Positions 1 through 21,466 of a DNA stretch of 21,466 nucleotides are shown one piece after another. The notes below the pieces were generated by a model. That model saw only the letters and a program-made list of their open reading frames with translations. It had not been told where the DNA came from and did no database searches. The stretch covers positions 1 through 21,466 of IMG/VR virus record IMGVR_UViG_2703718792_000016; one strand, written 5' to 3'. Position 1 is the first letter of the stretch. Every line of letters starts with the position of its first letter. A program made the position numbers and the translations under genes. This DNA comes from a virus. Its lineage: Duplodnaviria > Heunggongvirae > Uroviricota > Caudoviricetes.

Positions 1-567
1 TATCGCGTCCTCAACAATGAATTTTGTGATGCGGTGCCTGGTGCCTCCAGGTGACGTTAACCAGTTAACAATTAACGCCGGATACAGAGAATCCACCCAT
101 AACACTGTTTTTGGTTTTAACTGTTCCGCGTGCGCTGAGCCGCATTCACCGCATCACAAAATTCACTTTAAAAAGGGCGGCAGAGCAGTCACGGAGTAGA
201 ACTGATACCGCCAAAAGTCACCAGAAAATTGATAACAGAGGGCGTTGTAGCGGGGTTGTCACTTAAGTGTATGGTCAACCTGACAACCCGGTGTCCTCAA
301 CGGGGAAGGAATAACCCCGCCATACTTACCGCCGCGCCATTTCGCGGAGTGCCACAACCGGAAGCGCACGGTCGACGAAAATTTAACGACAGGCTATCTA
401 TGAACCAGCTACCTCGCCGTGCGCTTTCGCGTTATGGTCTGACTTTTCAGGGAAATATCCTTTCAGTAAACTGTCAGTGCCGGATGCTCACCCGTGTCCG
501 GCGCACGTACTCCACCTTACCCGTGGAGAACTCCTTAATTACCAACCTTAGCTTCGTTGGTTAGCTA

Positions 568-2846: not shown

Positions 2847-3917
2847 ATGGCTAACGCCTGGCTCAGATTATGGCATGACATGCCAAATGACCCTAAGTGG
2901 CGAACAATTGCCAGGGTGTCAGGGCAGCCAATTGCAACAGTGATGGCAGTGTATATCCACCTCCTGGTGAGTGCGTCACGAAATGTCACGCGAGGTCACA
3001 TTGATGTCACGACAGAAGATTTGGCAAGTGCGCTCGACGTGACAGAAGAGGTAATTGATTCAATTTTGCAGACGATGCAGGGGCGGGTACTTGATGGTGA
3101 TTTAATCACTGGATGGGAAAAACGCCAGGTGCTTAAAGAGGACAACGGCAATATTTCGCAAACCGCAAAATCTCCTGCAGAGCGCAAGAGGGCGCAGCGA
3201 GAGAGGGAAAGAAAGCGGGAACAAAATGGCGATTGTCACGGCGCGTCACGAAATGTCACGCACATGTCACGACGAGTCACGACAGATAAAGATACAGATA
3301 AAGATACAGATCAAGAAGATCAAAACACTATGGTCCATGGCGTAAAAAACGCCACGAACCAGGCAGGGGATGTTCAGACCGTCAATCCTGGTCAGCCAGC
3401 AGGCACGACACCGGAAGCCGATTCAGCGTATGCGCTGAAAGCCGATTCGGGCGCTGTGCAGCAGGCGATGACCGCAGGGTCGGAGCAATCACACCAACTG
3501 CAGCAGCCTGAAGCCGATTCCGCCATTCAGCGGGAAGCCGATCGGGTAGTCCCGAAAAACACCGGGCAGCCTGTGGGACGAGTGGATTATCCGGATGTGT
3601 TCGAACAGATCTGGCGGGAGTACCCGTTGCGTGCCGGGGCAAACCCGAAGAAATCCGCTTTCAGTGCCTGGAAGGCCAGATTACGCGAGGGGGTGCCACC
3701 AGAGGCCATGCTGGATGGCGTGAGGCGTTACGCAAGATACCTAGCGGTTACCGGGAAAACGGGAACGGAATTTGTTCAGCGGGCGACGACGTTTTTTGGA
3801 CCGGACCGGAATTTTGAAAACCCCTGGTTGCTCCCGGTAAGCGGCACGAACAACCAGCGTTGTGTGAATCATATTTCTGAACCGGATACCGAAATTCCGC
3901 CGGGCTTCAGGGGGTAA
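2847..3917 (+). CDS. replication initiation / replisome organiser protein (lambda O-like role) carrying its own iterons
   Basis: 356 aa from the ATG at 2847 (GAGGTGA upstream); low-complexity acidic/Q-A-P-rich linker; two clusters of phased GTCACG repeats inside the coding sequence, as the lambda ori lies inside O. Confidence 0.7.
   Translation: MANAWLRLWHDMPNDPKWRTIARVSGQPIATVMAVYIHLLVSASRNVTRGHIDVTTEDLASALDVTEEVIDSILQTMQGRVLDGDLITGWEKRQVLKEDNGNISQTAKSPAERKRAQRERERKREQNGDCHGASRNVTHMSRRVTTDKDTDKDTDQEDQNTMVHGVKNATNQAGDVQTVNPGQPAGTTPEADSAYALKADSGAVQQAMTAGSEQSHQLQQPEADSAIQREADRVVPKNTGQPVGRVDYPDVFEQIWREYPLRAGANPKKSAFSAWKARLREGVPPEAMLDGVRRYARYLAVTGKTGTEFVQRATTFFGPDRNFENPWLLPVSGTNNQRCVNHISEPDTEIPPGFRG
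2974..3011. repeat. iteron cluster 1: four GTCAC(G/A) copies at 10-11 bp phasing
   Basis: Copies start at 2975, 2985, 2995 and 3006; the 17-mer CGTCACGAAATGTCACG (2974-2990) is repeated exactly at 3244-3260. Confidence 0.55.
3235..3330. repeat. iteron cluster 2 (five GTCACG copies at 10-11 bp phasing) plus adjacent A/T-rich tandem repeat; candidate origin of replication
   Basis: GTCACG at 3235, 3245, 3255, 3266, 3276, followed by ACAGATAAAGAT tandem copies and an A-rich stretch (3282-3330); same architecture as lambda ori (iterons then AT-rich). Confidence 0.55.
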
Positions 3918-3957
3918 GTGTTTATTTCAGCTCATGAGGTAATTATCAGGAGGAGTT

Positions 3958-4383
3958 GTGGCAAAAGTTTTTACACAAGAAGAGCGGGAAAAAATTAAAG
4001 GGCAGGTTGTTGAACTTGTACGCCAGAGTGGGCGCGAGACGTTACGGCAACTGGAAGCCAAGACAGGTGCGACAAGATATCTGATGAGTGTTCTCGCCAG
4101 AGAGCTGGTTGCCAGTGGCGGTGTATACAATTCTGGCTACGGGTTATTCCCGTCTGAACAGGCTCGTAAAGACTGGCAAAACGCCCGCAAAAAATTATCG
4201 AGGGCAAAGCTGAAGAAACCGGTTGTGGTTGATCCTGACCTTATATGGTCATTACCAGATGGAGAAATACGTCGCTACGACAGGCACCTGAATATAATCT
4301 GTCGCGAGTGCCGGGAGAGCGAAGTTATGCAGCGCATACTGGCATTTTATCAAGGAAATGTTAGGTATTTTAGACGTTACTAG
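3958..4383 (+). CDS. hypothetical protein (141 aa), GTG start, immediately after the replication gene
   Basis: ORF with AGGAGG Shine-Dalgarno directly upstream of the GTG; basic, Cys-containing C-terminus; no family recognised. Confidence 0.55.
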   Translation: MAKVFTQEEREKIKGQVVELVRQSGRETLRQLEAKTGATRYLMSVLARELVASGGVYNSGYGLFPSEQARKDWQNARKKLSRAKLKKPVVVDPDLIWSLPDGEIRRYDRHLNIICRECRESEVMQRILAFYQGNVRYFRRY

Positions 4384-4611
4384 ATTAAAGAGCATTAGTT
4401 CAGATGTGAATTGACATTTTCATGGCGCAGGGTAGAGCTAGCGTGGTAGTTTTCTTTGTGCCAGAAACGGCATTTGCAAATATGGCCATGCGCTGTCACT
4501 TAGAGAGGAGCACAGGATTTACCTGTGCTCAAGTTCAATAGTAAAGATGAAAATATTATGAAGATGGTGGGGGAAATGTAACTGCAGTGATACTTTGTGC
4601 AAAAGTAGTAA

Positions 4612-5118
4612 TTATTTCTTTGCAGCCAGAATCAGGCCGTCAAGCCACTCCTGGTGACCATTGAGCATTGGGTTCGGACGAGTATTTGCCAGGTCTTTTG
4701 CTGGAACTCCGTTCTGCGTTTCCTGTGTCAGGATACGGAGTCTGTTACCCGAGAGTTCCTCCAGTAGCCACGCATGATGAACATCTAGGCGTTGTACAGT
4801 ATCTTTTTCACCGGACCATCCGTGCCATGCCAAACGAGCAGGTTTACCTTCAGTAGGTGGAATAAATTCCACGACCTGAGCTTCAACCGGAAATCCAAAT
4901 GTGCTGAAGTAAAAGCGCACGCCATTTTCCAGCTCCGGACCTTTATTGTTATAAAAGCGCACATCTGCTGAATTTTTATAGTATTCCGGCCATAGTAATG
5001 GCTGACTAAGGAGTGGCCAAACATCATTGATGTTCAGACCGGAGATGATCATTTCATTAGACACAAAGTTATCAGTAAATCCCGGAACAAAGCCTTCTGG
5101 CCAGTGAATAGCGTTCAT
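4612..5118 (-). CDS. SRPBCC (Bet v1-like / polyketide cyclase-like) superfamily protein, cargo gene
   Basis: 168 aa from the ATG at 5118 (GGAGG upstream); the track ORF start at 5130 is a TTG extension. Superfamily call from overall sequence character, not a search. Confidence 0.6.
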   Translation of the reverse strand: MNAIHWPEGFVPGFTDNFVSNEMIISGLNINDVWPLLSQPLLWPEYYKNSADVRFYNNKGPELENGVRFYFSTFGFPVEAQVVEFIPPTEGKPARLAWHGWSGEKDTVQRLDVHHAWLLEELSGNRLRILTQETQNGVPAKDLANTRPNPMLNGHQEWLDGLILAAKK

Positions 5119-5253
5119 AAATGCCTCCAATTGCGGTAGTTAATTGTACTGGGTTTGCTGCGTTACGACCGCAACACGATGGCAGTGATTATTAGCGCAA
5201 TGAAGTTATAAGGCGAATTATGATTACTTATAATCTTAATAAGATAAATTATA

Positions 5254-6162
5254 TCAGGAGCCAGTATCTTGGCTAACTTCTACGCATAAAGCCCGAATCC
5301 ACTGATGGCTAGGGTCACGATGAGTTCGTTCATGCCAGGCCATACTCTTGGTAAAGCCCGGAACTTTCAGGGGCAAAGGGAGTATGATTAGATCGTTGTT
5401 AGTCAGGACCATGCGGTGGGGGACAACAGCGATCATATCAGTCACTTGCAATATATCAGGAACTACTTGAAAACTATTAACTGACATGCCTACTCGTCGT
5501 GTCAGACTGAGCTTAGCCAGTGCTTCATCTGTAACACCGGAGAAGCTACCTTCTGAAGACACCAGAATATGTTCCTGTTTGCAAAATTGTTCGAGAGTCA
5601 TTTCTGAATTCGCTGACAACGGATGATTCCGTCGTGCTATGCAAACATAATCTTCTTCATAAAGTGCTCTGCCGTGCAGCTCTCCGGGAGTGGTTTGTGG
5701 TGTTACCAAAGCCAGATCAACTTCTCCCTGAGATAACTGCTGATATATTCGTTTATTGTCTACAGGCCGCACAGAGATTTTAATATTCGGTGCTCGATGT
5801 TTCAGCGCAGCCATCAATGGGACAACAACAGCCTTAACTGCATAGTCCGTTGCGACAATGGTATAAGTTAGTTCTGCCGTCATGGGGTCAAATTTACTTG
5901 GTTTCAGCAGAATCGTGATATCGGTGAGAATTTGTTTTACCGGCATAGCAAGTTCTTTAGCACGGAGTGTGGGAACCATACCGTGACTGGTGCGAACAAA
6001 GAGAGGATCGCAAAAATAATCACGTAATCGAATAAGCATGCCACTGACAGCGGGCTGCGTCAGGGAAAGTCGCTGCGCAGCCCGAGTCACGCTTCCCTCA
6101 TCCATTAACGCATCAAAGGTCTTAAGTAAGTTAAGGTCGAGGGTTTTGATATCATTTTTCAT
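5254..6162 (-). CDS. LysR-family transcriptional regulator
   Basis: 302 aa; N-terminal HTH signature (...LNLLKTFDALMDEGSVTRAAQRLSLTQPAVSGMLIRLRD...) and a C-terminal substrate-binding-type domain of typical length. Confidence 0.9.
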   Translation of the reverse strand: MKNDIKTLDLNLLKTFDALMDEGSVTRAAQRLSLTQPAVSGMLIRLRDYFCDPLFVRTSHGMVPTLRAKELAMPVKQILTDITILLKPSKFDPMTAELTYTIVATDYAVKAVVVPLMAALKHRAPNIKISVRPVDNKRIYQQLSQGEVDLALVTPQTTPGELHGRALYEEDYVCIARRNHPLSANSEMTLEQFCKQEHILVSSEGSFSGVTDEALAKLSLTRRVGMSVNSFQVVPDILQVTDMIAVVPHRMVLTNNDLIILPLPLKVPGFTKSMAWHERTHRDPSHQWIRALCVEVSQDTGS

Positions 6163-6493
6163 AATGAGGTCACCTGACAGATATAAAAATGTTGATTGAG
6201 GCTAATTGCCCCGATGAAGGTTGTCGAGGGGAACCAGGAGTTTTTTCTTTTGGGTGATTTCCATTGCTGGATAGTTCCCTTGTACAGATAAGTCCGTTCT
6301 TCGCACAAAGCGGACTGGAAGGTTAGCTTGAGTCGGACTTTGCGTATTAAAAGAAGTGCTGGTGGTGACTGGTTCTTTAGCCCCATTTCCCCAGAAAAAA
6401 TCAGAGAAACTATACCCAATAGTTGTATTGATTCACTGACGAGACGGCCTCATATTGATAGGGACTAGTGTGCATCCAATACAGGAGGTTGTT

Positions 6494-6583
6494 GTGCTGG
6501 TTCTCAAATGTGCGCTGGCTATTGCGGCTGTAATGGCAATTTATTGTCTTGCTGTTGTTCTTATGGATCGCCTTTCTGATTGA
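6494..6583 (+). CDS. small hydrophobic peptide (29 aa, VLVLKCALAIAAVMAIYCLAVVLMDRLSD), possible membrane peptide or type I toxin-like
   Basis: Not in the ORF track; GTG start with AGGAGG 6 nt upstream; one predicted transmembrane helix with a charged C-terminus; divergent from the LysR gene. Confidence 0.35.
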   Translation: MLVLKCALAIAAVMAIYCLAVVLMDRLSD

Positions 6584-6737
6584 TTTCATATTGGCGAGGT
6601 AACGGTAGTTAAGTAGAATTGCTGCGGGTGCTTGAGGCTATCTGCCTCGGGCATGAACACCAACGGCAGATAGAGAAAAGCCCCAGTTAACATTACGCGT
6701 CCTGCAAGACGTTTAACATTAATCTGAGGCCATATCT

Positions 6738-6797
6738 ATGCGACACATAGAGATTAGCCTCTTACGGACCGAAAGGTCAAGGAGAAGCAGGCTATGA
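6738..6797 (+). CDS. mok-like leader ORF overlapping the hok start
   Basis: 19-codon ORF whose stop overlaps the hok ATG (ATGA), the kind of coupling seen in hok/mok loci. Speculative. Confidence 0.25.
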   Translation: MRHIEISLLRTERSRRSRL

Positions 6798-6949
6798 AGC
6801 AGCAAAAGGCGATGTTAATCGCCCTGATCGTCATCTGTTTAACCGTCATAGTGACGGCACTGGTAACGAGGAAAGACCTCTGCGAGGTACGAATCCGAAC
6901 CGGCCAGACGGAGGTCGCTGTCTTCACAGCTTACGAACCTGAGGAGTAA
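6794..6949 (+). CDS. hokD: Hok/Gef-family type I toxin (HokD/RelF-like)
   Basis: 51 aa MKQQKAMLIALIVICLTVIVTALVTRKDLCEVRIRTGQTEVAVFTAYEPEE; aligns with R1 Hok ([20 protein letters not shown]) and matches my recollection of E. coli RelF/HokD; GGAG Shine-Dalgarno upstream. Confidence 0.85.
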   Translation: MKQQKAMLIALIVICLTVIVTALVTRKDLCEVRIRTGQTEVAVFTAYEPEE

Positions 6950-6987
6950 GAGACCAGGCGAGGGAGAAATCCCTCGCCACCTCTGAT

Positions 6988-7395
6988 GTGTCAGGCATCC
7001 TCAACGCACCCGCACGTAACCCGCTTCGGCGGGTTTTGTTTTTTCCTGGCATTCTGGTTTACAATTCGCACGCCAGCCTGAACAACTGGCACCTGCTGCG
7101 CCAGCAGAGACAACCGATGGCGCGCGATACCAAATTACACAATTCTAATGATTCTGCCGTCTTTGCCAGTAGGTGCGGACGGCGTTTTCACGCATTCAAA
7201 TCAGACTGGTTCCAGCATCCTCCATGCACTGAAGAGCAGGCGGAATGGATAATTCAGTGTTACCGCAGGCGCGGATACGAGGTTAAGAAAGCTCTTAGCC
7301 TCGACTACCGTCACTGGATAATCTCAGTCAGACTCCCTTACTCCGAACGCCCACCGCGTTCATCCCGCACATTCCAGCAACGCATCTGGAGGTAA
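6988..7395 (+). CDS. hypothetical protein in the nin-like region (possibly Rem-like); start uncertain (GTG 6988 or ATG 7117)
   Basis: ORF ends 1 nt before the DUF968 gene start; preceded by a stem-loop (6959-6976) after hok. A 92-aa product from 7117 is equally possible. Confidence 0.45.
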   Translation: MSGILNAPARNPLRRVLFFPGILVYNSHASLNNWHLLRQQRQPMARDTKLHNSNDSAVFASRCGRRFHAFKSDWFQHPPCTEEQAEWIIQCYRRRGYEVKKALSLDYRHWIISVRLPYSERPPRSSRTFQQRIWR

Positions 7396-7396
7396 C

Positions 7397-8452
7397 GTGC
7401 GGGTATTACTTCGACCTGTTCTGGTACCGGAACTCGGGCTGGTGATCGTTAAGCCGGGCCGTGAATCCATGCCGGTATTCCACAATACCCGGGTATTGGT
7501 GGAGCCGGAACCGAAAAGCATGCGTAATCTGCCGTCCGGGGTCGTTCCTGCCGTTCGCCAGCCGCTGGTGGAAGACAAAACATTGCTGCCGTTTTTCAGT
7601 AACGCACGGGTGATTCGTGCTGCTGGTGGTGCTGGTGCATTGTCTGACTGGCTGTTGCGCCATATTAAATCCTGCCAGTGGCCACACGGCGATTATCATC
7701 ACAGCGAAACCGTCATTCACCGTTATGGTACCGGCGCAATGGTGTTGTGCTGGCACTGCGACAACCAGCTGCGTGACCAGACATCCGAATCACTCGAGCA
7801 ACTTGCTCATCAAAACCTGTCAGCATGGATGATTGACGTCATCGGTCACGCAATAAGCGGTACGCAGGAGCGTGAATTATCTTTGGCTGAATTATCCTGG
7901 TGGGCGGTCCGCAATCAGGTGGCGGACGCGCTACCGGAAGCGGTATTACGTCGTTCGCTGGGGTTGCGTGCGGAAAAAATCCGCTCAATGTACCGTGAAA
8001 GCGACATCGTACCGGGAGAGCAGACCGCCACCATCATACTGAAGCAGCGCACAAAAAATCTTGCGCCGCTGCCTCACGCCCACCAGCAAAACCCGCCACA
8101 GGAAAAGACGGTGGTCAGCATTGCCGTTGATCCGGAGTCACCGGCTCAGTATCTCCAGCGCCAGAAACCACAACGGGAAGAGATGCCTGTATACACGCGC
8201 TGGGTAAAAACGCAGAAATGCATGACGTGCGGTAATCAGGCAGATGATCTGCATCACATCATTGGTCATGGACTGGGAGGGATGGGAACAAAGGCTGATG
8301 ATTTGTTTGTTATTCCGCTGTGCCGTAAATGTCATAACGAACTGCACGCCGGGGTAAAAGATTTTGAAGAAAAACACGGCAGCCAGCTGTTGTTGCTGAT
8401 TCGTTTTTTAATGCACGCGAGAAATTCGGGTGTCCTGAAGTGGAAAGCATAA
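7397..8452 (+). CDS. DUF968-family prophage protein (YdfU-like) with C-terminal HNH-like Cys/His motif
   Basis: 351 aa, GTG start with GGAGG upstream; C-terminal CMTCGN...DDLHHIIGHG...CRKCHNELH pattern; position matches ydfU in Qin-type prophages. Confidence 0.8.
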   Translation: MRVLLRPVLVPELGLVIVKPGRESMPVFHNTRVLVEPEPKSMRNLPSGVVPAVRQPLVEDKTLLPFFSNARVIRAAGGAGALSDWLLRHIKSCQWPHGDYHHSETVIHRYGTGAMVLCWHCDNQLRDQTSESLEQLAHQNLSAWMIDVIGHAISGTQERELSLAELSWWAVRNQVADALPEAVLRRSLGLRAEKIRSMYRESDIVPGEQTATIILKQRTKNLAPLPHAHQQNPPQEKTVVSIAVDPESPAQYLQRQKPQREEMPVYTRWVKTQKCMTCGNQADDLHHIIGHGLGGMGTKADDLFVIPLCRKCHNELHAGVKDFEEKHGSQLLLLIRFLMHARNSGVLKWKA

Positions 8453-8818
8453 ATGACTGAGCGCATAGAATTTGTTTTGCCTTACCCGCCGTCGGTGAAC
8501 ACCTACTGGCGCCGTCGTGGTGGCGTATATTTTGTATCAAAAGCCGGTGAGCGTTATCGCCGGGATGTGGCGCTTATTGTTCGCCAGCAGCGACTGAAAT
8601 TAAATCTGTCCGGTAGATTGGCAATCAGGATTATTGCAGAGCCACCGGATAAGCGCCGCCGCGACCTGGACAATATCCTGAAGGCACCACTGGATGCACT
8701 GACACATGCAGGACTGCTTATCGACGATGAGCAGTTTGATGAAATCAATATTGTGCGCGGTCAGCTCGTTCCTGGTGGGCGGCTGGGGATAAAAATCACA
8801 GAACTGGAGTGCGCATGA
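8453..8818 (+). CDS. rusA: RusA-family Holliday junction resolvase
   Basis: 121 aa with the RusA core ...PDKRRRDLDNILKAPLDALTHAGLLIDDEQ...; start directly follows the upstream stop. Confidence 0.9.
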   Translation: MTERIEFVLPYPPSVNTYWRRRGGVYFVSKAGERYRRDVALIVRQQRLKLNLSGRLAIRIIAEPPDKRRRDLDNILKAPLDALTHAGLLIDDEQFDEINIVRGQLVPGGRLGIKITELECA

Positions 8819-9504
8819 ATAACCAGTATTTACAGTTTGTGCGTGAGCAGCTCATTATCGCCACCGCTGATTTGAGTGGGGCAACAAAAGGTCAGCTTGA
8901 AGCCTGGCAGGAGAATGCCATGTTCGATACAGGGCGTTACAGGCGAAAAAAAATCCGGTACCGCGATGAAGTGACTGGAAAAATGATAACGCGGAATAAT
9001 CAACCAATCCCGGGAAAGCAATCGCTGGCGAAGGGGACGTCAATTCCTCTGGTCAGTCCGGTTGAGTTTTCGACATCATCGTGGCGGCGGGCTGTTCTGT
9101 CTCTTGAAGAACATCATAAAGCCTGGTTGTTGTGGTGTTACAGCGGGAGTATTTGTTGGGAATATCAGATCGCGATAACACAGTGGGCGTGGAATGAATT
9201 TAATACTCAATCCGGTACCAGAAAAATTGCAGGGAAAACGCAGGAACGCCTGAAAAAATTAATCTGGCTGACGGCGCAGGCAGTAAAAGCAGAACTTTTG
9301 GGTGGGGAAGGTTATGAATACCAGGATCTGGCATTACTGGCGGGAGTGACAACTAAAAACTGGTCCAAAACATTTACTCGTCACTGGGTTGCAATGAAAC
9401 ACATTTTTCACCGACTGGATAGTGAGGCTTTATTGTTTGTAATGAGAACACGTTCAAAACAAAAGGCGGCATTTTCAAAGCAAAGTGTTGCAAAAGTAGA
9501 TTGA
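8815..9504 (+). CDS. putative late-gene antiterminator (Q-like)
   Basis: 229 aa; ATG overlaps the rusA stop; located after the nin-like genes and before a promoter/terminator module, tRNAs and the lysis cassette. Assignment rests on position, not recognised motifs. Confidence 0.55.
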   Translation: MNNQYLQFVREQLIIATADLSGATKGQLEAWQENAMFDTGRYRRKKIRYRDEVTGKMITRNNQPIPGKQSLAKGTSIPLVSPVEFSTSSWRRAVLSLEEHHKAWLLWCYSGSICWEYQIAITQWAWNEFNTQSGTRKIAGKTQERLKKLIWLTAQAVKAELLGGEGYEYQDLALLAGVTTKNWSKTFTRHWVAMKHIFHRLDSEALLFVMRTRSKQKAAFSKQSVAKVD

Positions 9505-9516
9505 AAGGCATATATT
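9488..9516 (+). promoter_or_regulatory. candidate late promoter (pR'-like): -35 TTGCAA, 17-bp spacer, -10 TATATT
   Basis: Hexamers at 9488-9493 and 9511-9516, overlapping the 3' end of the Q-like gene, about 55 nt upstream of an intrinsic terminator. Confidence 0.35.
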
Positions 9517-9570
9517 TCATGCAAATCTGATATTTTGCCGATTTTGTACGTGATGGCAAAAGCAAACAAA

Positions 9571-9594
9571 ACCCGCCCACAAGCGGGTTTTTTG
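9571..9594 (+). terminator. intrinsic terminator (tR'-like) downstream of the Q-like gene
   Basis: ACCCGC / GCGGGT stem with CCACAA loop followed by a run of six T. Confidence 0.6.
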
Positions 9595-9675
9595 TGCCAC
9601 TTATCTCGGATAGACATGGTGAATGCGCTGGTGGAGGAAGTAAGGGTAATTTTTAATCAGGTGATTCTTGAATGC

Positions 9676-9704
9676 TTGCAACATTGATTTCGTAACGTTA
9701 TTAT
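9676..9704 (+). promoter_or_regulatory. candidate sigma70 promoter for the tRNA array: -35 TTGCAA, 17-bp spacer, -10 TATTAT
   Basis: Hexamers at 9676-9681 and 9699-9704, ending about 10 nt before the first tRNA. Confidence 0.4.
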
Positions 9705-9713
9705 CCTGCGCCC

Positions 9714-9789
9714 GGCCCTTTAGCTCAGTGGTGAGAGCGAGCGACTCATAATCGCCAGGTCGCTGGTTCAAATCCAGCAAGGGCCACCA
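9714..9789 (+). tRNA. tRNA with CAT anticodon, most similar to tRNA-Ile2 (lysidine, ileX/ileZ-like); Met not excluded
   Basis: 76 nt; cloverleaf with 7-bp acceptor stem GGCCCTT/AAGGGCC, anticodon loop CTCATAA, T-loop TTCAAAT, CCA encoded; close to my recollection of E. coli ileX. Confidence 0.85.
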
Positions 9790-9790
9790 A

Positions 9791-9867
9791 CCGCCACTAG
9801 CTCATCAGGAAAGAGCGTCAACCCTTTAAGTTGAGTGTGCGAGGTTCGAGTCCCCGGTGGCGGTCCA
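9791..9867 (+). tRNA. tRNA-like gene with non-canonical anticodon loop CCTTTAA (formal anticodon TTT, Lys); isotype uncertain
   Basis: 77 nt; acceptor stem CCGCCAC/GTGGCGG, T-loop TTCGAGT, CCA encoded, but C at position 33 and an A-C mismatch in the T-stem. Confidence 0.55.
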
Positions 9868-9869
9868 GT

Positions 9870-9945
<76 letters not shown>

Positions 9946-9948
9946 TAT

Positions 9949-10023
<75 letters not shown>

Positions 10024-10186
10024 GTATTTATCTGCATATTTCCTTTTGAATCCCGTTTTGTTAGAGGTATTGGGCTGTTGACGGGGCTGATATCCACTCT
10101 CCACCTTTCAGGGAGATAGGATTTAAGGAGCCAACCGGTTAGAGTCTGCTTTGTTCCTAACCAGTTGGTTATGTTATTTGAGATGG

Positions 10187-10750
10187 TTAGTTTTTATTCG
10201 CCGTCCATTTACCACAAATTGGTCTGGAGAAGATTGCCAGAATGGCAATAAAGGATATTTCAATTGAAACAGACCAGCATATATGTCCAATCAGTTCGCT
10301 CCAGAATTCATAGCCGTTTAGATTCCATAGCCATCCTCTTTCATGGCCGGGAAGATACGCGGGAAATCTGAAGCCCAGCGCGGGTATTAAAATACCATGC
10401 ATGACTAATGTAATAAGAATTCCATATACAGCCCCATACCACATGCGGACTCGTGGAATAAAAACAGACAGGTATATGTATACAAAGGCAAAAATGAAAC
10501 TAAAAAGCCAATGGTAGAGCATAACAGCTCCGGGAATTGTTACTCCTTGGTAAATGTAATCCAGCGAGTGTGAATTTATTCCCAGAAAACCCAACCAGGC
10601 GTCGATATTCATTGCTGGTGGAGAAATTTCTCCGGCCATTCTTGGGGGCATGTTAGCTTCAGTTCCTGATTTCACCAGAGAGCTGATCGCGCCACCGACC
10701 AGTGTTGCCCAAAGTATGATTTTTAGATTTACGCTATTCCATTTACACAT
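10187..10750 (-). CDS. DUF1440-family inner membrane protein (YagU-like), moron between tRNAs and lysis genes
   Basis: 187 aa from the ATG at 10750 (GAGG upstream); several hydrophobic helices; C-terminal ...SELIGHICWSVSIEI... resembles the YagU signature. The 93-codon upstream extension in the track ORF is low-complexity and probably untranslated. Confidence 0.7.
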   Translation of the reverse strand: MCKWNSVNLKIILWATLVGGAISSLVKSGTEANMPPRMAGEISPPAMNIDAWLGFLGINSHSLDYIYQGVTIPGAVMLYHWLFSFIFAFVYIYLSVFIPRVRMWYGAVYGILITLVMHGILIPALGFRFPAYLPGHERGWLWNLNGYEFWSELIGHICWSVSIEISFIAILAIFSRPICGKWTANKN

Positions 10751-11043
10751 AAACAACCTCTTGTTTGTTGGGTTGGGGTTATCATACATGACTGCTTGTT
10801 GCGATTTTGCATCGTAATGTTTCTGTTTGTTGTCTTTTGTGTTGTTTGTCTCTTTAGTGTTCTGTGTGTGACTATGTACACTCTGTATAGTGGGGGCTCC
10901 CGTTGGTGCAGAGAATAACGAAATCTGAAAATAACCGTTTTCAGTTGTGGCGCCCGCAACAAAAGCGCATGCTGACTGTGCGAAGATAATCCCGCTGTGA
11001 CGAGTAATCTCGAACGTCATTGTTTTCATTTATGCCAGTTACC

Positions 11044-11070
11044 CAAAGCTGGCTTTTTTTGAGGTCTGCT
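11044..11070 (+). terminator. intrinsic terminator-like hairpin with T7 run (plus orientation)
   Basis: GCCAG / CTGGC stem followed by TTTTTTT. Confidence 0.5.
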
Positions 11071-11073
11071 CCG

Positions 11074-11097
11074 GCAGGCTTTTTTTATTCCGGCATA
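11074..11097 (+). terminator. intrinsic terminator-like hairpin with T-run (plus orientation)
   Basis: GTCTGC / GCAGGC stem with TCCG tetraloop followed by seven T. Confidence 0.5.
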
Positions 11098-11301
11098 TAT
11101 AACTATGGAGTATTGCGACAACCTGATAAAAGTCTGCATATCGCGATCCAACGGTAGAAGCGATAAACGAGCTGAGCGATATGTTTCCAGAGGAGAAGAG
11201 GTTGAGCGATACGAAGAAACAGCTAAGTATATTAAGAGAATGTTAATGTGCTTCATTGCTGATCAGAAGCTATCGGGATAATCATCAGTTTTTTGTATTG
11301 A

Positions 11302-11324
11302 GGCTCGCTACGGCGGGCCTTTTT
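11302..11324 (+). terminator. intrinsic terminator-like hairpin with T-run (plus orientation)
   Basis: GGCTCGC / GCGGGCC stem (one G-U pair), TACG loop, then TTTTT. Confidence 0.5.
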
Positions 11325-11465
11325 CACATCCGCGTCACGCCCGGCGCACATCACATCAGATAACGCTATACAAAAGGCATCTTCGGGTGCCTTTGATGGG
11401 GGGGCGGGCCGCTGGTGGCTTTTTTTGTTTCCATTACACAGCACCCGCATCTGCGAGGTGGGGTT

Positions 11466-11681
11466 ATGAAATCCATGGATAAGTTAACAACGGGTGTCGC
11501 CTATGGCACCTCAGCAGGTAGTGCCGGGTACTGGTTTTTACAGTTGCTCGATAAAGTCACGCCCTCACAGTGGGCGGCAATAGGTGTGCTGGGTAGTCTG
11601 GTATTTGGCTTGCTGACGTATCTGACAAACCTTTATTTCAAGATTAAAGAAGATAAGCGTAAGGCTGCGAGAGGTGAATAA
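11466..11681 (+). CDS. S: class II holin (phage 21 S21-type pinholin) with dual-start motif MKSM
   Basis: 71 aa [71 protein letters not shown], close to my recollection of S21; GAGGTGG Shine-Dalgarno; two Met codons three codons apart. Confidence 0.85.
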
Positions 11682-12178
11682 TGTCGCCATCATTACGCAA
11701 GGCTATTGCTGCTGCTATTGGTGGTGGGGCTGTTGCCATAGCGTCTGTGCTCATCACTGGTCCGAGTGGTGACGATGGCCTGGAAGGTGTCAGCTACATA
11801 CCATACAAAGATATCGTTGGCGTATGGACTGTATGTCACGGACACACCGGAAAAGACATCATGCTCGGTAAAACGTATACCGAAGCAGAATGCAAAGCCC
11901 TCCTGAATAAAGACCTTGCCACGGTCGCCAGACAAATTAACCCGTACATAAAAGTCGATATACCGGAAACAACGCGCGGCGCTCTTTACTCGTTCGTTTA
12001 CAACGTGGGCGCTGGCAATTTCAGAACATCGACGCTTCTTCGCAAAATAAACCAGGGCGATATCAAAGGCGCATGTGATCAGCTACGGCGCTGGACATAC
12101 GCTGGCGGTAAGCAATGGAAAGGGCTGATGACTCGCCGTGAGATTGAGCGTGAAGTCTGTTTGTGGGGGCAGAAATGA
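11681..12178 (+). CDS. R: SAR endolysin (R21-type lysozyme with N-terminal signal-arrest-release domain)
   Basis: 165 aa; Gly/Ala-rich weakly hydrophobic N-terminus ([20 protein letters not shown]) followed by a LEG...YxD...T lysozyme catalytic region; start overlaps the holin stop. Confidence 0.85.
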
Positions 12179-12642
12179 GCAGAGTAACCGCGATTATCTC
12201 CGCTCTGGTTATCTGCATCATCGTCTGCCTGTCATGGACTGTTAATCATTACCGTGATAACGCCATCGCCTACAAAGAACAGCGTGATAAAAAAGTCAGT
12301 GAGCTGGAGCAGGCGATCGCCACCATCGCTGACATGCAGCAGCGTCAGCGTGATGTTGCTGTGCTCGATGCAAAGTACTCGAGAGAATTAGCCAATGCGA
12401 AAGCTGAAAATGAAACTCTGCGCGCTGATGTTGCCGCTGGTCGTAAGCGCCTGCGGGTCAATGCCAGTTGCTCCGCAGCCGTGCGTGAAGCCACCGGACC
12501 CACCCGCGTGGATAATGCAACCAGCCCCCGACTGGCAGACACCGCTGAACGGGATTATTTCACCCTCAGAGAACGGCTGATGACAATGCAAAAGCAACTG
12601 GAAGGGGCACAGGAATATATCCGTACCCAGTGTATACCGTGA
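12175..12642 (+). CDS. Rz: Rz-like i-spanin (inner membrane spanin subunit)
   Basis: 155 aa from the ATG at 12175 overlapping the endolysin stop; N-terminal transmembrane helix then coiled-coil-like sequence; contains the embedded Rz1 frame. Confidence 0.8.
12395..12580 (+). CDS. Rz1: Rz1-like o-spanin lipoprotein embedded in the +1 frame of Rz
   Basis: 61 aa with signal peptide and lipobox (LVVSAC) followed by a Pro-rich mature region, entirely inside Rz. Confidence 0.65.
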
Positions 12643-13107
12643 TGTTTTGTTATAAAGGTGTTGATGGTTGTGTTAGGGGGGATTTAACAAAAAGCCAGTT
12701 CTGGACTTTATAGTGTGCTCAGATCATGGCCAAAAACGATTTCTGTGATAAATATTTTGAATATTATTTACAGGTAAATGACGTGGGTCGCATGAATGAA
12801 AATATTACAATAGAGTATTAAGTATATGCTCATATTGTATGGGCTGAGAAGGCAAAACACGGTAATTCCTTATGTTGCTGTGATACCTGATTGGCAGAAT
12901 AGTTATTTGGTCTTGAGTATATAGTCAGCGTTTTTTGTTCAGTAATAGATCTTTCAGTTAAAAACAATAAATAGCGTGATTATTTCTGTTTGTTATTTGT
13001 ATTTTTGTTTGTTGTTTTATTGTCTTTCTGTGGAGGGGGGAGTATTGTTCCCTTATTAAGGGCAGGTAAATTTAGAATGGTAATCTGTAGATAATTGGAG
13101 GTCACTT

Positions 13108-13422
13108 ATGCTACATGATCACCAGGCTGAATGTCTGGAGAAAAAAGGACTGTACCGGAGAGCGGCTGCACGATGGGCAAAAGTGATGGTACAGCTAAGT
13201 GATGATCAGAAAAGAAAAATCGCGGCACAGAAACGAGCAGAGTGTTTGCGTAAGGCGCGCCGGACTTCGGTTGCACCGGTGAATCTGACAGAAATAAAGC
13301 AAGCGGTCAACAGACTACATTCTGAGTTGGGAATGGGATTTGAAGAGCGGCGGATATTCCGACGATATAAAGGGACAGGAGAACAGAATACGTCCGGAAA
13401 CGCGCGCTCAAAAAAATGCTAA
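13108..13422 (+). CDS. PerC-family transcriptional regulator (Pch-like), moron between lysis genes and cos
   Basis: 104 aa; N-terminal ...LEKKGLYRRAAARWAKVM... matches the PerC/Pch signature as I recall it; preceded by about 460 bp of A/T-rich non-coding DNA and followed by a terminator. Confidence 0.6.
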   Translation: MLHDHQAECLEKKGLYRRAAARWAKVMVQLSDDQKRKIAAQKRAECLRKARRTSVAPVNLTEIKQAVNRLHSELGMGFEERRIFRRYKGTGEQNTSGNARSKKC

Positions 13423-13463
13423 AAAATATTTGAGAAAGTTATTGCCTGTTACCATAAGAAAAA

Positions 13464-13485
13464 GCGACTTTAGTAGTCGCTTTTT
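13464..13485 (+). terminator. intrinsic terminator after the PerC-like gene (A-run before and T-run after, possibly bidirectional)
   Basis: GCGACT / AGTCGC stem with TTAGT loop, then TTTTT; preceded by AAAAA. Confidence 0.6.
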
Positions 13486-13590
13486 GTGTCATATATAAGT
13501 CGTTTAAGTAAACCTGTCCGAACAGGTGCTCTGGTCGTGTTTGTTTTTGTTGGGTACAAATTGAGAATGTTTTTCATTAATTAGTCTTCT

Positions 13591-13728
13591 TCAGCAGACT
13601 TCAATAATCCACGCTGAAAAAATTCCTGAACCTTTCTGACCAAAAGCGATGTTAATTTGTTCAATAATCTGGTTTGGAAATCGGATGTTGAGGGCTGTTG
13701 TTCTGCGGGTTCTGTTCTTTGATGACAT
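13591..13728 (-). CDS. small ORF (45 aa, MSSKNRTRRTTALNIRFPNQIIEQINIAFGQKGSGIFSAWIIEVC), possible ribbon-helix-helix-like protein
   Basis: Not in the ORF track; found by manual translation; basic N-terminus and an ALNIRFP strand-like segment; weak Shine-Dalgarno. Confidence 0.3.
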   Translation of the reverse strand: MSSKNRTRRTTALNIRFPNQIIEQINIAFGQKGSGIFSAWIIEVC

Positions 13729-13930
13729 AATGTTGCCCCATATTCAGTGTTGCTGGTTTGTATTTTCTGAAATTGCTTTTACGTTAATTTAATGTGGATC
13801 AATTGATGCAATGCCTGCGTCATAATTGATCATTTCTTGTGGTTAGATTGCGCACACACACGTTCAGATGAGTCATCATGAAGATGATAACTATTCTCAT
13901 TTTTGTGGGTCCTTTCCGGCGATCTGACAG

Positions 13931-14105
13931 GCTACGGGGCGGAAGGCGCGCGGGTTTTCGCTATTTATGAAAATTTTCCGGTTTAAGGCGTTTCCGTTCT
14001 TCTTCGCCGTAACTTCATGTTTTTATTTAAAACACCCCCTGAAAAGAAAGGAAACGACAGATGCTGAAAACGGGCTTTTTGGCCTTTGTCGTTTCCTTTC
14101 TCTGT
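13931..14105. other. cos site: cosN (about 13937-13948) and cosB with R3/R2/R1-like repeats upstream of Nu1
   Basis: Sequence from about 13949 onward (CGCGGGTTTTCGCTATTTATGAAAATTTTCCGGTTTAAGGCGTTTCCGTTC...) matches the lambda left end as I recall it; GGAAACGACAG / CTGTCGTTTCC inverted elements at 14047-14060 and 14086-14100. Confidence 0.7.
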
Positions 14106-14125
14106 TTTTGTCCGTGGAATGAACA

Positions 14126-14645
14126 ATGGAAGTCAACAAAAAGCAGCTGGCTGACATTTTCGGTGCGAGTATCCGTACCATTCAGAACTGGCAGGAGCAG
14201 GGAATGCCCGTTCTGCGAGGCGGTGGGAAGGGTAATGAGGTGCTTTATGACTCTGCCGCCGTCATAAAATGGTATGCCGAAAGGGATGCTGAAATTGAGA
14301 ACGAAAAGCTGCGCCGGGAAGTTGAAGAACTGCGGCAGGCCAGCGAGGCAGATCTCCAGCCAGGGACTATTGAGTACGAACGCCATCGACTTACGCGTGC
14401 GCAGGCCGACGCACAGGAGCTGAAGAATGCCAGAGACTCCGCTGAAGTGGTGGAAACCGCATTCTGTACTTTCGTGCTGTCGCGGATCGCAGGTGAAATT
14501 GCCAGTATTCTCGACGGGATCCCCCTGTCGGTGCAGCGGCGTTTTCCGGAACTGGAAAACCGACATGTTGATTTCCTGAAACGGGATATCATCAAAGCCA
14601 TGAACAAAGCAGCCGCGCTGGATGAACTGATACCGGGGTTGCTGA

Positions 14646-14671
<26 letters not shown>
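14126..14671 (+). CDS. nu1: terminase small subunit Nu1
   Basis: 181 aa MEVNKKQLADIFGASIRTIQNWQEQGMPVLRGGGKGNEVLYDSAAVIKWY..., matching lambda gpNu1 from memory; 26-nt overlap with the next gene as in lambda. Confidence 0.95.
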
Positions 14672-18249
<3,578 letters not shown>

Positions 18250-18352
18250 GTCCGTGAAACGATGGAGCGCCGCGCGGCTGGTCTTAAACCGCCCGCCTGG
18301 GCGGCTGCGGCATTTGAATCCGGGCTGCGACAATCAACAGAGGAGGAGAAGA

Positions 18353-19672
18353 GTGACAGCAGAGCTGCGTAATCTCCCGCATATTGCCAGTATGGCCTTT
18401 AATGAGCCGCTGATGCTTGAACCCGCCTATGCGCGGGTTTTCTTTTGTGCGCTTGCAGGCCAGCTTGGGATCAGCCGCCTGACGGATGCGGTATCCGGCG
18501 ACAGCCTGACTGCCGGAGAGGCACCCGCGGCGCTGGCGTTATCCGGTGATGATGACGGACCACGACAGGCCCGCAGTTATCAGGTCATGAACGGCATCGC
18601 CGTGCTGCCGGTGTCCGGCACGCTGGTCAGTCGGACGCGGGCGCTGCAGCCGTATTCGGGGATGACCGGTTACAACGGCATTATCGCCCGTCTGCAACAG
18701 GCTGCCAGCGACCCGATGGTGGACGGCATTCTGCTCGATATGGATACGCCAGGCGGGATGGTGGCAGGGGCATTTGACTGCGCTGACATCATCGCCCGTG
18801 TGCGTGACATAAAGCCGGTATGGGCGCTGGCCAACGACATGAACTGCAGTGCAGGTCAGTTGCTTGCCAGCGCCGCCTCCCGGCGTCTGGTCACGCAGAC
18901 CGCCCGGACAGGCTCCATCGGCGTCATGATGGCTCACAGTAATTACGGTGCTGCGCTGGAGAAACAGGGCGTGGAAATCACGCTGATTTACAGCGGCAGC
19001 CATAAGGTGGATGGCAACCCCTACAGCCATCTACCGGATGATGTCCGGGAAACACTGCAGTCCCGGATGGATGCAACCCGCCGGATGTTTGCACAGAAGG
19101 TGTCGGCATATACCGGCCTGTCCGTGCAGGCTGTGCTGGATACCGAGGCTGCAGTGTACAGCGGTCAGGAGGCCATTGATGCCGGACTGGCTGATGAACT
19201 TGTTAACAGTACCGATGCGATCACCGTCATGCGTGATGCACTGGATGCACGTAAATCCCGTCTCTCAGGAGGGCGAATGACCAAAGAGACTCAATCAACA
19301 ACTGTTTCAGCCACTGCTTCGCAGGCTGACGTTACTGGCGTGGTGCAAGCGACGGAGGGCGAGCACGCCAGCGCTGCGCAGCCGGACGTGAACGCGCAGA
19401 TCACCGCAGCGGTTGCGGCAGAAAACAGTCGCATTATGGGGATCCTCAACTGTGAGGAGGCTCACGGACGCGAAGAACAGGCACGCGTGCTGGCCGAAAC
19501 CCCCGGTATGACCGTGGAAACGGCCCGCCGCATTCTGGCAGCTGCACCACAGAGTGCACAGGCGCGCAGTGACACTGCGCTGGATCGTCTGATGCAGGGG
19601 GCACCGGCACCGCTGGCTGCAGGTAACCCGGCATCTGATGCCGTTAACGATTTGCTGAACACACCAGTGTAA
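18353..19672 (+). CDS. C: prohead protease / scaffold protein C
   Basis: 439 aa from the GTG at 18353 (VTAELRNLPHIASMAFNEPLMLEPAYARVFF...); same coordinates relative to B as in lambda. The track ORF start at 18206 is an upstream over-extension. Confidence 0.9.
   Translation: MTAELRNLPHIASMAFNEPLMLEPAYARVFFCALAGQLGISRLTDAVSGDSLTAGEAPAALALSGDDDGPRQARSYQVMNGIAVLPVSGTLVSRTRALQPYSGMTGYNGIIARLQQAASDPMVDGILLDMDTPGGMVAGAFDCADIIARVRDIKPVWALANDMNCSAGQLLASAASRRLVTQTARTGSIGVMMAHSNYGAALEKQGVEITLIYSGSHKVDGNPYSHLPDDVRETLQSRMDATRRMFAQKVSAYTGLSVQAVLDTEAAVYSGQEAIDAGLADELVNSTDAITVMRDALDARKSRLSGGRMTKETQSTTVSATASQADVTGVVQATEGEHASAAQPDVNAQITAAVAAENSRIMGILNCEEAHGREEQARVLAETPGMTVETARRILAAAPQSAQARSDTALDRLMQGAPAPLAAGNPASDAVNDLLNTPV
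19067..19672 (+). CDS. nu3: scaffolding protein Nu3 (in-frame internal start within C)
   Basis: ATG at 19067 in the C frame gives a 201-aa product sharing the C stop; position corresponds to lambda Nu3. Confidence 0.65.
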   Translation: MDATRRMFAQKVSAYTGLSVQAVLDTEAAVYSGQEAIDAGLADELVNSTDAITVMRDALDARKSRLSGGRMTKETQSTTVSATASQADVTGVVQATEGEHASAAQPDVNAQITAAVAAENSRIMGILNCEEAHGREEQARVLAETPGMTVETARRILAAAPQSAQARSDTALDRLMQGAPAPLAAGNPASDAVNDLLNTPV

Positions 19673-19681
19673 GGGATGTTT

Positions 19682-20014
19682 ATGACGAGCAAAGAAACCT
19701 TTACCCATTACCAGCCGCTGGGCAACAGTGACCCGGCACATACGGCAACCGCGCCCGGCGGATTGAGTGCGAAAGCGCCTGCAATGACCCCGCTGATGCT
19801 GGATACCTCCACCCGTAAGCTGGTTGCGTGGGATGGCACCACCGACGGTGCTGCCGTTGGCATTCTGGCGGTTGATGCTGACCAGACCAGCACCACGCTG
19901 ACGTTCTACAAGTCCGGCACGTTCCGTTATGAGGATGTGCTCTGGCCGGGGGCTGCCAGCGACGAGACGAAAAAACGGACCGCGTTTGCCGGAACGGCAA
20001 TCAGCATCGTTTAA
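19682..20014 (+). CDS. D: head decoration protein D
   Basis: 110 aa [43 protein letters not shown]...; the track start at 19676 adds two codons not present in lambda. Confidence 0.9.
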
Positions 20015-20069
20015 CTTTACCCTTCATCACTAAAGGCTGCCTGTGCGGCTTTTTTTACGGGATTTTTTT

Positions 20070-21095
20070 ATGTCGATGTACACAACCGCCCAGCTGCTGG
20101 CGGCAAATGAGCAGAAATTTAAGTTTGATCCGCTGTTTCTGCGTCTCTTTTTCCGTGAGAGCTATCCCTTCACTACGGAGAAAGTCTATCTCTCACAAAT
20201 TCCGGGACTGGTAAACATGGCGCTGTACGTTTCGCCGATTGTTTCCGGTGAGGTTATCCGTTCCCGTGGCGGCTCCACCTCTGAATTTACGCCGGGATAT
20301 GTCAAACCCAAGCATGAAGTGAATCCGCAGATGACCCTGCGTCGCCTGCCGGATGAAGATCCGCAGAGTCTGGCGGACCCGGCTTACCGCCGCCGTCGCA
20401 TCATCATGCAGAACATGCGTGACGAAGAGCTGGCCATTGCTCAGGTCGAAGAGATGCAGGCAGTTTCTGCCGTGCTTAAGGGCAAATACACCATGACCGG
20501 TGAAGCCTTCGATCCGGTTGAGGTGGATATGGGCCGCAGTGCGGCGAACAATATCACGCAGTCCGGCGGCACGGAGTGGAGCAAGCGTGACAAGTCCACG
20601 TATGACCCGACCGACGATATCGAAGCCTACGCGCTGAACGCCAGCGGCGTGGTGAATATCATCGTGTTTGACCCGAAAGGCTGGGCGCTGTTCCGTTCCT
20701 TCAAAGCCGTCAGGGAGAAGCTGGATACCCGTCGCGGCTCTCATTCCGAGCTGGAGACAGCGGTAAAAGACCTGGGCGAAGCGGTGTCCTATAAGGGGAT
20801 GTATGGCGATACGGCGATCGTCGTGTATTCCGGACAGTACGTGGAAAACGACGTCAAAAAGAACTTCCTGCCGGACAACACGATGGTGCTGGGGAACACT
20901 CAGGCACGCGGTCTGCGCACCTATGGCTGCATTCAGGATGCGGACGCACAGCGCGAAGGTATTAACGCCTCTGCCCGCTACCCGAAAAACTGGGTGACCA
21001 CCGGCGATCCGGCGCGTGAGTTCACCATGATTCAGTCAGCACCGCTGATGCTGCTGGCTGACCCTGATGCGTTCGTGTCCGTACAACTGGCGTAA
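20070..21095 (+). CDS. E: major capsid protein E
   Basis: 341 aa from MSMYTTAQLLAANEQKFKFDPLFLRLFF...; the track ORF start at 20043 is an over-extension. Confidence 0.95.
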   Translation: MSMYTTAQLLAANEQKFKFDPLFLRLFFRESYPFTTEKVYLSQIPGLVNMALYVSPIVSGEVIRSRGGSTSEFTPGYVKPKHEVNPQMTLRRLPDEDPQSLADPAYRRRRIIMQNMRDEELAIAQVEEMQAVSAVLKGKYTMTGEAFDPVEVDMGRSAANNITQSGGTEWSKRDKSTYDPTDDIEAYALNASGVVNIIVFDPKGWALFRSFKAVREKLDTRRGSHSELETAVKDLGEAVSYKGMYGDTAIVVYSGQYVENDVKKNFLPDNTMVLGNTQARGLRTYGCIQDADAQREGINASARYPKNWVTTGDPAREFTMIQSAPLMLLADPDAFVSVQLA

Positions 21096-21136
21096 TCATG
21101 GCCCTTCGGGGCCATTTTCTCTCTGTGGAGGAGTCC

Positions 21137-21466
21137 ATGACGAAAGATGAACTGATTGCCCGTCTTCAGGTGCTGGGTGAGCAACTGAACCGTGATGTCA
21201 GCCTGACGGGGACGAAAGAAGAACTGGCACTCCGTGTGGCAGAGCTGGAAGAGGAGCTTGATGACACGGATGACGCTGCTGGTCAGGACACATCTGTCAG
21301 CCCGGAAAATGCGCTGACCGGACATGAAAATGAGGTTGTATCAGCGCAGCCGGATACCGTGACTGATACGGCTGATCTGGTCACGGTTGTGGCACTGGTG
21401 ACGCTGCATACTGATGCACTTCACGCCACGCGGGATGAGGCTGTGGCATTTGTGCTGCCGGGAACG
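21137..21466 (+). CDS. FI: DNA packaging protein FI (3' end cut by the window edge)
   Basis: MTKDELIARLQVLGEQLNRDVSLTGTKEELALRVAELEEELDD...; ORF runs off the end of the window. Confidence 0.85.
   Translation, partial: MTKDELIARLQVLGEQLNRDVSLTGTKEELALRVAELEEELDDTDDAAGQDTSVSPENALTGHENEVVSAQPDTVTDTADLVTVVALVTLHTDALHATRDEAVAFVLPGT

Follow-up and report, generated by a model that had tools for sequence, protein, structure and literature searches.

Whether the small regulatory gene that follows the lysis cassette of a lambdoid prophage could switch on the virulence genes of its Escherichia coli host is the question raised by the stretch of DNA considered here (IMG/VR virus record IMGVR_UViG_2703718792_000016, positions 1 to 21,466; Caudoviricetes), the whole 21,466 nucleotides of which are termed the window below. 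The locus is very probably a group-1 pch moron, which lies between the lysis cassette and the cos/Nu1 end of the prophage and would act as PchA does. The family and subgroup of the gene, the anatomy of its module, its position, its terminator and its near-perfect co-occurrence with the enterocyte effacement locus (LEE) come from the present analysis; an action of Pch on the LEE would follow by analogy with published work on PchA, to which the protein is 94% identical. The gene and its translation signal are located as follows.

13108-13422, plus strand: pch gene (assigned to the group-1 PchABC type, PerC family), ATG start, TAA stop, 104 amino acids.
13097-13101, plus strand: Shine-Dalgarno sequence GGAGG, 6 nucleotides ahead of the pch ATG and kept in all alleles compared, that of E. 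albertii included.

An earlier, sequence-only reading had placed the gene in the PerC family on account of a GLYRRAAARW motif near the N-terminus, and a search with the family model, which could have returned no similarity, gave a decisive match instead. The protein, which begins with MLHDHQAECLEKKGLYRRAAARW and carries the motif at residues 14-23, aligns through residues 1-89 with positions 1-89 of the 90 in the Pfam PerC model PF06069 (E 6.8e-42, 142.1 bits, with a gathering score of 22.6 bits as the cut-off), and this full-length match is far beyond chance. PHROG 994 was matched as well (E 9.4e-44), and the invariant and near-invariant columns of a 40-member PerC-family alignment are all kept in the window protein, in which R17, R18, A19, W23, D4, A7, E8, L10, E11, G14, A20, R22, R43, C46 and G75 are retained. 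A sequence-profile search of the PDB with the same protein returned no relative.

Within the family, the closest described counterpart is PchA (ECs_1091) of E. coli O157:H7 Sakai, which has the same length and is identical at 98 of 104 residues. The six substitutions of the window protein relative to PchA (V6Q, E21A, V38I, P53S, S55A and V83I) are all found at positions that vary in the 40-member alignment. One of them, E21A, which gives AAARW in place of AAERW, was considered as a possibly damaging change; this was rejected, since position 21 varies among family members and most often holds alanine. The window protein also shares a 90% cluster with O157:H7 proteins, and on the strength of its equal length and near-identity to PchA it is a group-1 Pch of the PchA/B/C type.

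PchA, PchB and PchC (also 'PerC1'), which are encoded by the Sakai prophages Sp4, Sp11 and Sp14, resemble the window gene in their length of 104 amino acids and in the arrangement of an AT-rich upstream region, an open reading frame (ORF) and a terminator. From the Rz stop to about position 13605, the Sakai pchA locus and the window module share about 90% nucleotide identity, upstream region and terminator included, and the main difference between them is the length of a T-rich repeat. Sakai Sp4 is also comparable in carrying pch after Rz in a lambdoid prophage that holds DicF as well, whereas the window allele departs from Sakai pchA by nucleotide differences at -12, +16..21 and +112..115, by the six substitutions and by the other repeat length. 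PerC of enteropathogenic E. coli (EPEC) E2348/69, which is 48% identical to the window protein over residues 2-88, belongs to the same Pfam family and activates the LEE1 promoter; it is encoded in the perABC operon with the AraC-type PerA on the pEAF plasmid and is dispensable for LEE expression under many conditions. In contrast, Pch is prophage-borne, monocistronic, present in multiple copies and required in enterohaemorrhagic E. coli (EHEC).

Two divergent relatives of the gene were encountered. The allele of E. albertii NBRC 107761 (L014:2501-2791) has a shorter ORF of 92 amino acids and has only the last 60 bp or so before the ATG in common with the window, the sequence farther upstream being unrelated yet AT-rich. 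A 138-amino-acid protein, P0004, named 'PchABC-homolog', joins an N-terminal fragment of a terminase small subunit (PF03592) to a PerC domain starting LEKKGLYRR, and this fusion is probably a rearrangement product.

The association of pch with the LEE was counted across 5426 complete E. coli genomes, where the number of genomes carrying both was obtained by inclusion-exclusion from separate and concatenated queries. The pch ORF was present in 673 genomes (median 3 copies each), LEE1, represented by a 2.8-kb ler-escR fragment, in 697, and the concatenated query was found in 699, which gives 671 genomes with both, as against about 86 expected if the two were independent. Thus, 99.7% of the pch-positive genomes are LEE-positive and 96% of the LEE-positive genomes carry a group-1 pch; the exceptions by the same reckoning are 26 LEE1-positive genomes without group-1 pch and 2 pch-positive genomes without LEE1. 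Because LEE1 accompanies pch in 671 of 673 genomes, the host of the window prophage is very likely LEE-positive, and the link to virulence that had been proposed from the sequence holds at the population level. The closest prophage relative in a complete genome, at 96.7-96.8% identity, belongs to strain 377323_2f, an eae-, stx2f- and bfp-positive O63:H6 isolate, and several draft E. coli assemblies match positions 3108-21466 of the window at 99.99% identity. Assemblies with this exact prophage include GCA_012673725.1, GCA_001606835.1, GCA_016998035.1, GCA_001286465.1 and GCA_033843485.1. Elsewhere, the module was met in only two unannotated fragments of the phage collection and, among the GTDB species representatives, only in E. 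albertii and one Escherichia sp.

In EHEC and EPEC, group-1 pch genes act as master switches of the attaching-and-effacing virulence programme, and their presence flags the prophage, and almost certainly its host too, as belonging to a LEE-positive pathotype. The window gene itself is an ordinary new copy of a described and already annotated gene type, the family, prophage position and function of which were already known. Its exact protein exists as an E. coli database entry, 'PerC family transcriptional regulator', drawn from 90 contigs. Detection of pch is useful for annotation and strain typing and adds nothing new, the exact allele being annotated already in public genomes.

The module around the gene and its two neighbours comprise the following features.

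12163-12642, plus strand: Rz spanin gene (Pfam Phage_lysis, E 5.7e-49), last gene of the lysis cassette and left flank of the module.
12643-13107, plus strand: AT-rich upstream or regulatory region of pch, 465 bp with 33.5% GC, the presumed site of the promoter and the 5' untranslated region.
12980-13023, plus strand: T-rich imperfect tandem repeat, period about 19, 2.3 copies, Tandem Repeats Finder score 61.
13459-13489, both strands: bidirectional intrinsic terminator with an 11-bp stem (13459-13469/13475-13485), a 5-nucleotide loop and a T run.
13591-13728, minus strand: small DUF3950 gene (YlcI/YnfO-type; Pfam PF13132, E 1.2e-09), right flank, convergent with pch.

Overall, the window constitutes a lambdoid prophage, in which DicF, hok/sok, DUF968, RusA, Q, four tRNAs, a YagU-like gene, holin, lysozyme and Rz/Rz1 are followed by pch, DUF3950, Nu1, terminase A, portal and head genes, and the order Rz-pch-DUF3950-Nu1 is found again in strain 377323_2f and in Sakai Sp4. 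In the phages cdtI and phi467, whose R-Rz segment is 96% identical to that of the window, Rz leads straight into the packaging genes without a pch module, and the homology to the window stops 7-12 bases ahead of the Rz stop. The right flank (13520-14125, from DUF3950 to the cos region) was detected in 4419 of the 5426 complete genomes, mostly without pch, as compared with 673 for the pch module. Queries with the entire module (958 bp) and with the ORF by itself recovered 1881 and 1877 places, respectively, from an identical set of 688 records, and the pch ORF and its upstream region appear to move together. Taken together, the lack of the module in cdtI and phi467, the unequal counts of flank and pch and the apparent joint travelling of upstream region and ORF mark a discrete cargo module, which agrees with the earlier designation of the gene as a moron. 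The traits of such elements are present in the form of a discrete insertion, an own terminator and a deviant flank composition.

Lambdoid phages classically carry cargo at this right-end position, which bor occupies in lambda. Like the window pch, the right-end morons of lambdoid genomes are cargo between Rz and cos/Nu1 with an atypical composition and an own terminator, and they are missing from close relatives. The window cargo is unlike bor, which encodes an outer-membrane lipoprotein from the opposite strand, in being a transcription regulator on the late-operon strand. A further arrangement was observed in GCA_033843485.1 (L005:9068-12635), where two tandem Rz-pch-DUF3950 modules stand beside chromosomal genes of the ZinT family, a ferric reductase and a molybdopterin oxidoreductase; this looks like a prophage remnant that has retained two pch copies.

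The own terminator attributed to the regulator gene was recovered as the hairpin and T run at 13459-13489, whose stem has the GC core GCGACT/AGTCGC, followed by TTTTTGTGT, and a folding energy of about -14 kcal/mol (z-scores of -2.1 on the plus strand and -4.1 on the minus strand). Since the hairpin folds on both strands, it is regarded as bidirectional and therefore serves pch as well as the convergent DUF3950 gene, and it is conserved in the Sakai pchA locus. A simple terminator scan did not list this hairpin, probably as a consequence of the T run being taken up into the stem. No plus-strand terminator between Rz and pch was found in a scan of 12400-13100, and an Rfam scan of 12500-14200, at the gathering threshold and at E<=1, gave nothing credible within the pch module.

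The A/T-rich region of about 460 bp that had been described ahead of the gene is indeed there, with 465 bp at 33.5% GC, as against 50.7% for the window, 53.7% for Rz, 48.6% for the pch ORF and 36% for the other flank of the ORF. It is the lowest-GC stretch of its length in the 21.5-kb window, only 0.07% of all 465-bp segments being as AT-rich, and the runner-up lies directly downstream of pch. The TGTTTG repeats formerly noted in it were in part overstated: the T-rich imperfect tandem at 12980-13023 is present, and exact TGTTTG occurs only twice (12987 and 13006). This repeat is length-polymorphic, with 19 additional bases in the allele of strain 377323_2f and another length again in Sakai pchA. 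As regards H-NS, the AT content, the one feature that points to it, makes its binding to 12643-13107 plausible, and the silenced promoter of the earlier reading is a putative one.

The published biology of Pch indicates how such a gene could work. Both adherence and the expression of ler and espA depend on group-1 pch genes, and not on PchD or PchE (PMC6265319, PMC4332760). Pch activates LEE1 only under silencing by H-NS, StpA, Hha and YdgT, where it lowers the occupancy of H-NS, and it is not homologous to any known DNA-binding protein (PMC4764244). LrhA and Lrp/butyrate influence the transcription of pchA (PMC4456613, PMC7279287), and SOS induction raises the expression of group-1 pch (PMC6265319). 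By analogy, transcription of the window gene in the lysogen would start at a promoter of its own within the AT-rich region ahead of it, as with the LrhA- and Lrp/butyrate-responsive pchA. The small helical protein would then act at the LEE1 (ler) promoter and at other horizontally acquired virulence loci, where relief of H-NS/StpA/Hha silencing would allow Ler to be made and the genes for type III secretion and attachment to be turned on. The prophage small RNA (sRNA) DicF may tune the translation of pch. After induction, pch would also be read within the Q-antiterminated late transcript, a read-through suggested by its place immediately behind S-R-Rz, in the same orientation and with no intervening terminator, and the SOS-raised expression of group-1 pch fits this position on the late-operon strand.

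Several observations weigh against this assignment. The window allele bears six substitutions relative to PchA, and a Pch activity of this allele is a presumption from sequence likeness. Members of the family can differ in effect, PchD and PchE being inactive on the LEE (PMC6265319) and a PerC-family protein encoded by a phage-inducible chromosomal island (PICI) repressing LEE1 (PMC11773190). The LEE lies outside the window, which makes the LEE status of the host a population-level estimate. Upstream of pch, neither a standard scan nor a relaxed script found a convincing sigma-70 consensus promoter on the plus strand, and the best candidates are not conserved between alleles. Moreover, a search of 12643-13107 for the H-NS high-affinity nucleation motif TCGATAAATT, with up to 2 mismatches allowed, gave no match, and across the window the motif shows no enrichment (14 matches against 19.7 expected).

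Part of these points would be accommodated if the gene encoded a member of the PerC family without action on the LEE or with the opposite sign, comparable to PchD/PchE or the PICI protein EcCIMP1_025, with targets elsewhere such as curli/csgD, flagella or metabolism. Because a protein's sign of action cannot be read from PerC-family membership by itself (PMC11773190), the functional call rests on the 94% identity to PchA; membership is no predictor when PchD and PchE have little effect on the LEE and EcCIMP1_025 represses LEE1, and the six substitutions could be read in the same direction. However, members that are inactive or repressing reach an identity of only about 40%, as opposed to 94% at equal length for PchA, the residues conserved in the family are all kept and the changed positions are variable ones, both the module and its position are those of pchA, and LEE1 accompanies this gene type in 671 of the 673 genomes that have it. 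An inactive or repressing gene is thus improbable, and an activator of the PchA kind is retained.

Another possibility is that pch is transcribed only as the tail of the late operon after induction, the AT-rich region being a spacer or a recombination scar. The missing consensus promoter on the plus strand would suit it, as would the shared strand with S-R-Rz, the uninterrupted path from Rz to pch and the SOS response of group-1 pch. Against it stand the published native promoter of pchA, which is LrhA- and Lrp/butyrate-responsive in uninduced cells, the published need for pch in LEE expression under non-inducing conditions and an upstream region that shares about 90% identity with its pchA counterpart and appears to accompany the ORF in essentially all copies. 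We give this view very little credence and prefer a gene with a promoter of its own that may additionally be reached by late transcription. Finally, a LEE-negative host in which Pch would regulate backbone genes or be idle cargo is scarcely credible, for although 2 of the 673 pch-positive complete genomes lack LEE1 by inclusion-exclusion and Pch is published to bind many sites, the K-12 backbone included, 99.7% of pch-positive genomes are LEE1-positive and the nearest complete-genome relative is eae-positive.

With the group-1 assignment preferred, a resemblance to the ANR family bears on the mechanism. The ANR proteins (Aar, Rnr) are small anti-activators that bind AraC-type regulators and H-NS, and they share with PerC/Pch a small size, a helical make-up, an origin in enteric pathogens and an influence on H-NS silencing; PerC/Pch differs in possessing an extra C-terminal helix and tail and in activating rather than repressing. 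Against the NCBIfam ANR model NF033650, with a curated cut-off of 32 bits, 46 of 49 PerC-family representatives matched at E<=0.1, colinearly over residues 6-52 or so and with a best E of 5e-07, yet the scores all stayed under the cut-off (at most 28.5 bits). The window Pch scored only 12.7 bits (E 0.087), with 18.8-28.5 bits for other PerC members, and a comparison of an Aar-clade profile with a PerC profile was not significant. Aar is known to bind H-NS directly (PMC5570504), whereas co-precipitation of H-NS with PchA was published as negative. On this footing it is conceivable, though rather unlikely in our estimate, that the N-terminal three-helix part of Pch/PerC (residues 6-52 or so) is of ANR type. 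It would relieve silencing mainly through contacts with H-NS-family, Hha or AraC-type proteins instead of sequence-specific DNA binding, and the C-terminal helix and tail would set the outcome as activation, no effect or LEE repression. Such a reading applies at the level of the family and is not special to the window; a 2025 paper, in which ANR matches were noticed for the PICI-encoded PerC-family protein repressing LEE1, hints at the same (PMC11773190).

A second regulator, an sRNA, is encoded near the start of the window.

175-226, minus strand: DicF sRNA gene (Rfam RF00039, 71.5 bits), whose link with pch is a prediction for the window allele.

In pchA, base pairing of the ribosome-binding site with the coding region prevents translation, and DicF relieves this block at low oxygen (PMC7769764, PMC9438474, PMC7873438). 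Sakai Sp4 also carries both DicF (L002:15732-15783, minus strand) and pchA, and the window and Sp4 therefore each unite a regulator RNA with its published target in one element. For the site of pairing between DicF and pch, duplexfold, windowed duplexes and dimer cofolding each gave a different answer, and these predictions are not interpretable because the site changes with the method. Folding of Sakai pchA predicts that the ribosome-binding region pairs with +24..31 or +110..119, and the window allele carries changes in or adjacent to these segments, at 13123-13128 (+16..21) and 13219-13222 (+112..115), and also at 13096 (-12). Its Shine-Dalgarno sequence is predicted to be largely unpaired in a local hairpin loop (probability of being unpaired about 0.6, compared with 0.24-0.5 in Sakai). 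As a weak lead from this modelling, the window allele might be translated without DicF.

The remainder of the prophage presents a few other loci of interest. A hok/sok type I toxin-antitoxin locus is situated in the nin region at 6626-6949 (plus strand), with a score of 101 bits for sok in Rfam and the hok ORF at about 6794-6949. In the early region, a LysR-type regulator (5254-6162, minus strand) stands beside an ORF of 168-172 amino acids (4612-5130, minus strand) without a Pfam match, and the two (4612-6162) look like a second cargo block. Downstream of Q, four tRNA genes are arranged at 9714-10023 (plus strand), with the anticodons CAT, TTT (Lys), TGT (Thr) and TCC (Gly), of which the CAT tRNA is designated Met by ARAGORN and Ile in RefSeq relatives. 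A YagU/DUF1440 membrane-protein gene (10187-10750, minus strand) is placed between these tRNAs and the holin.
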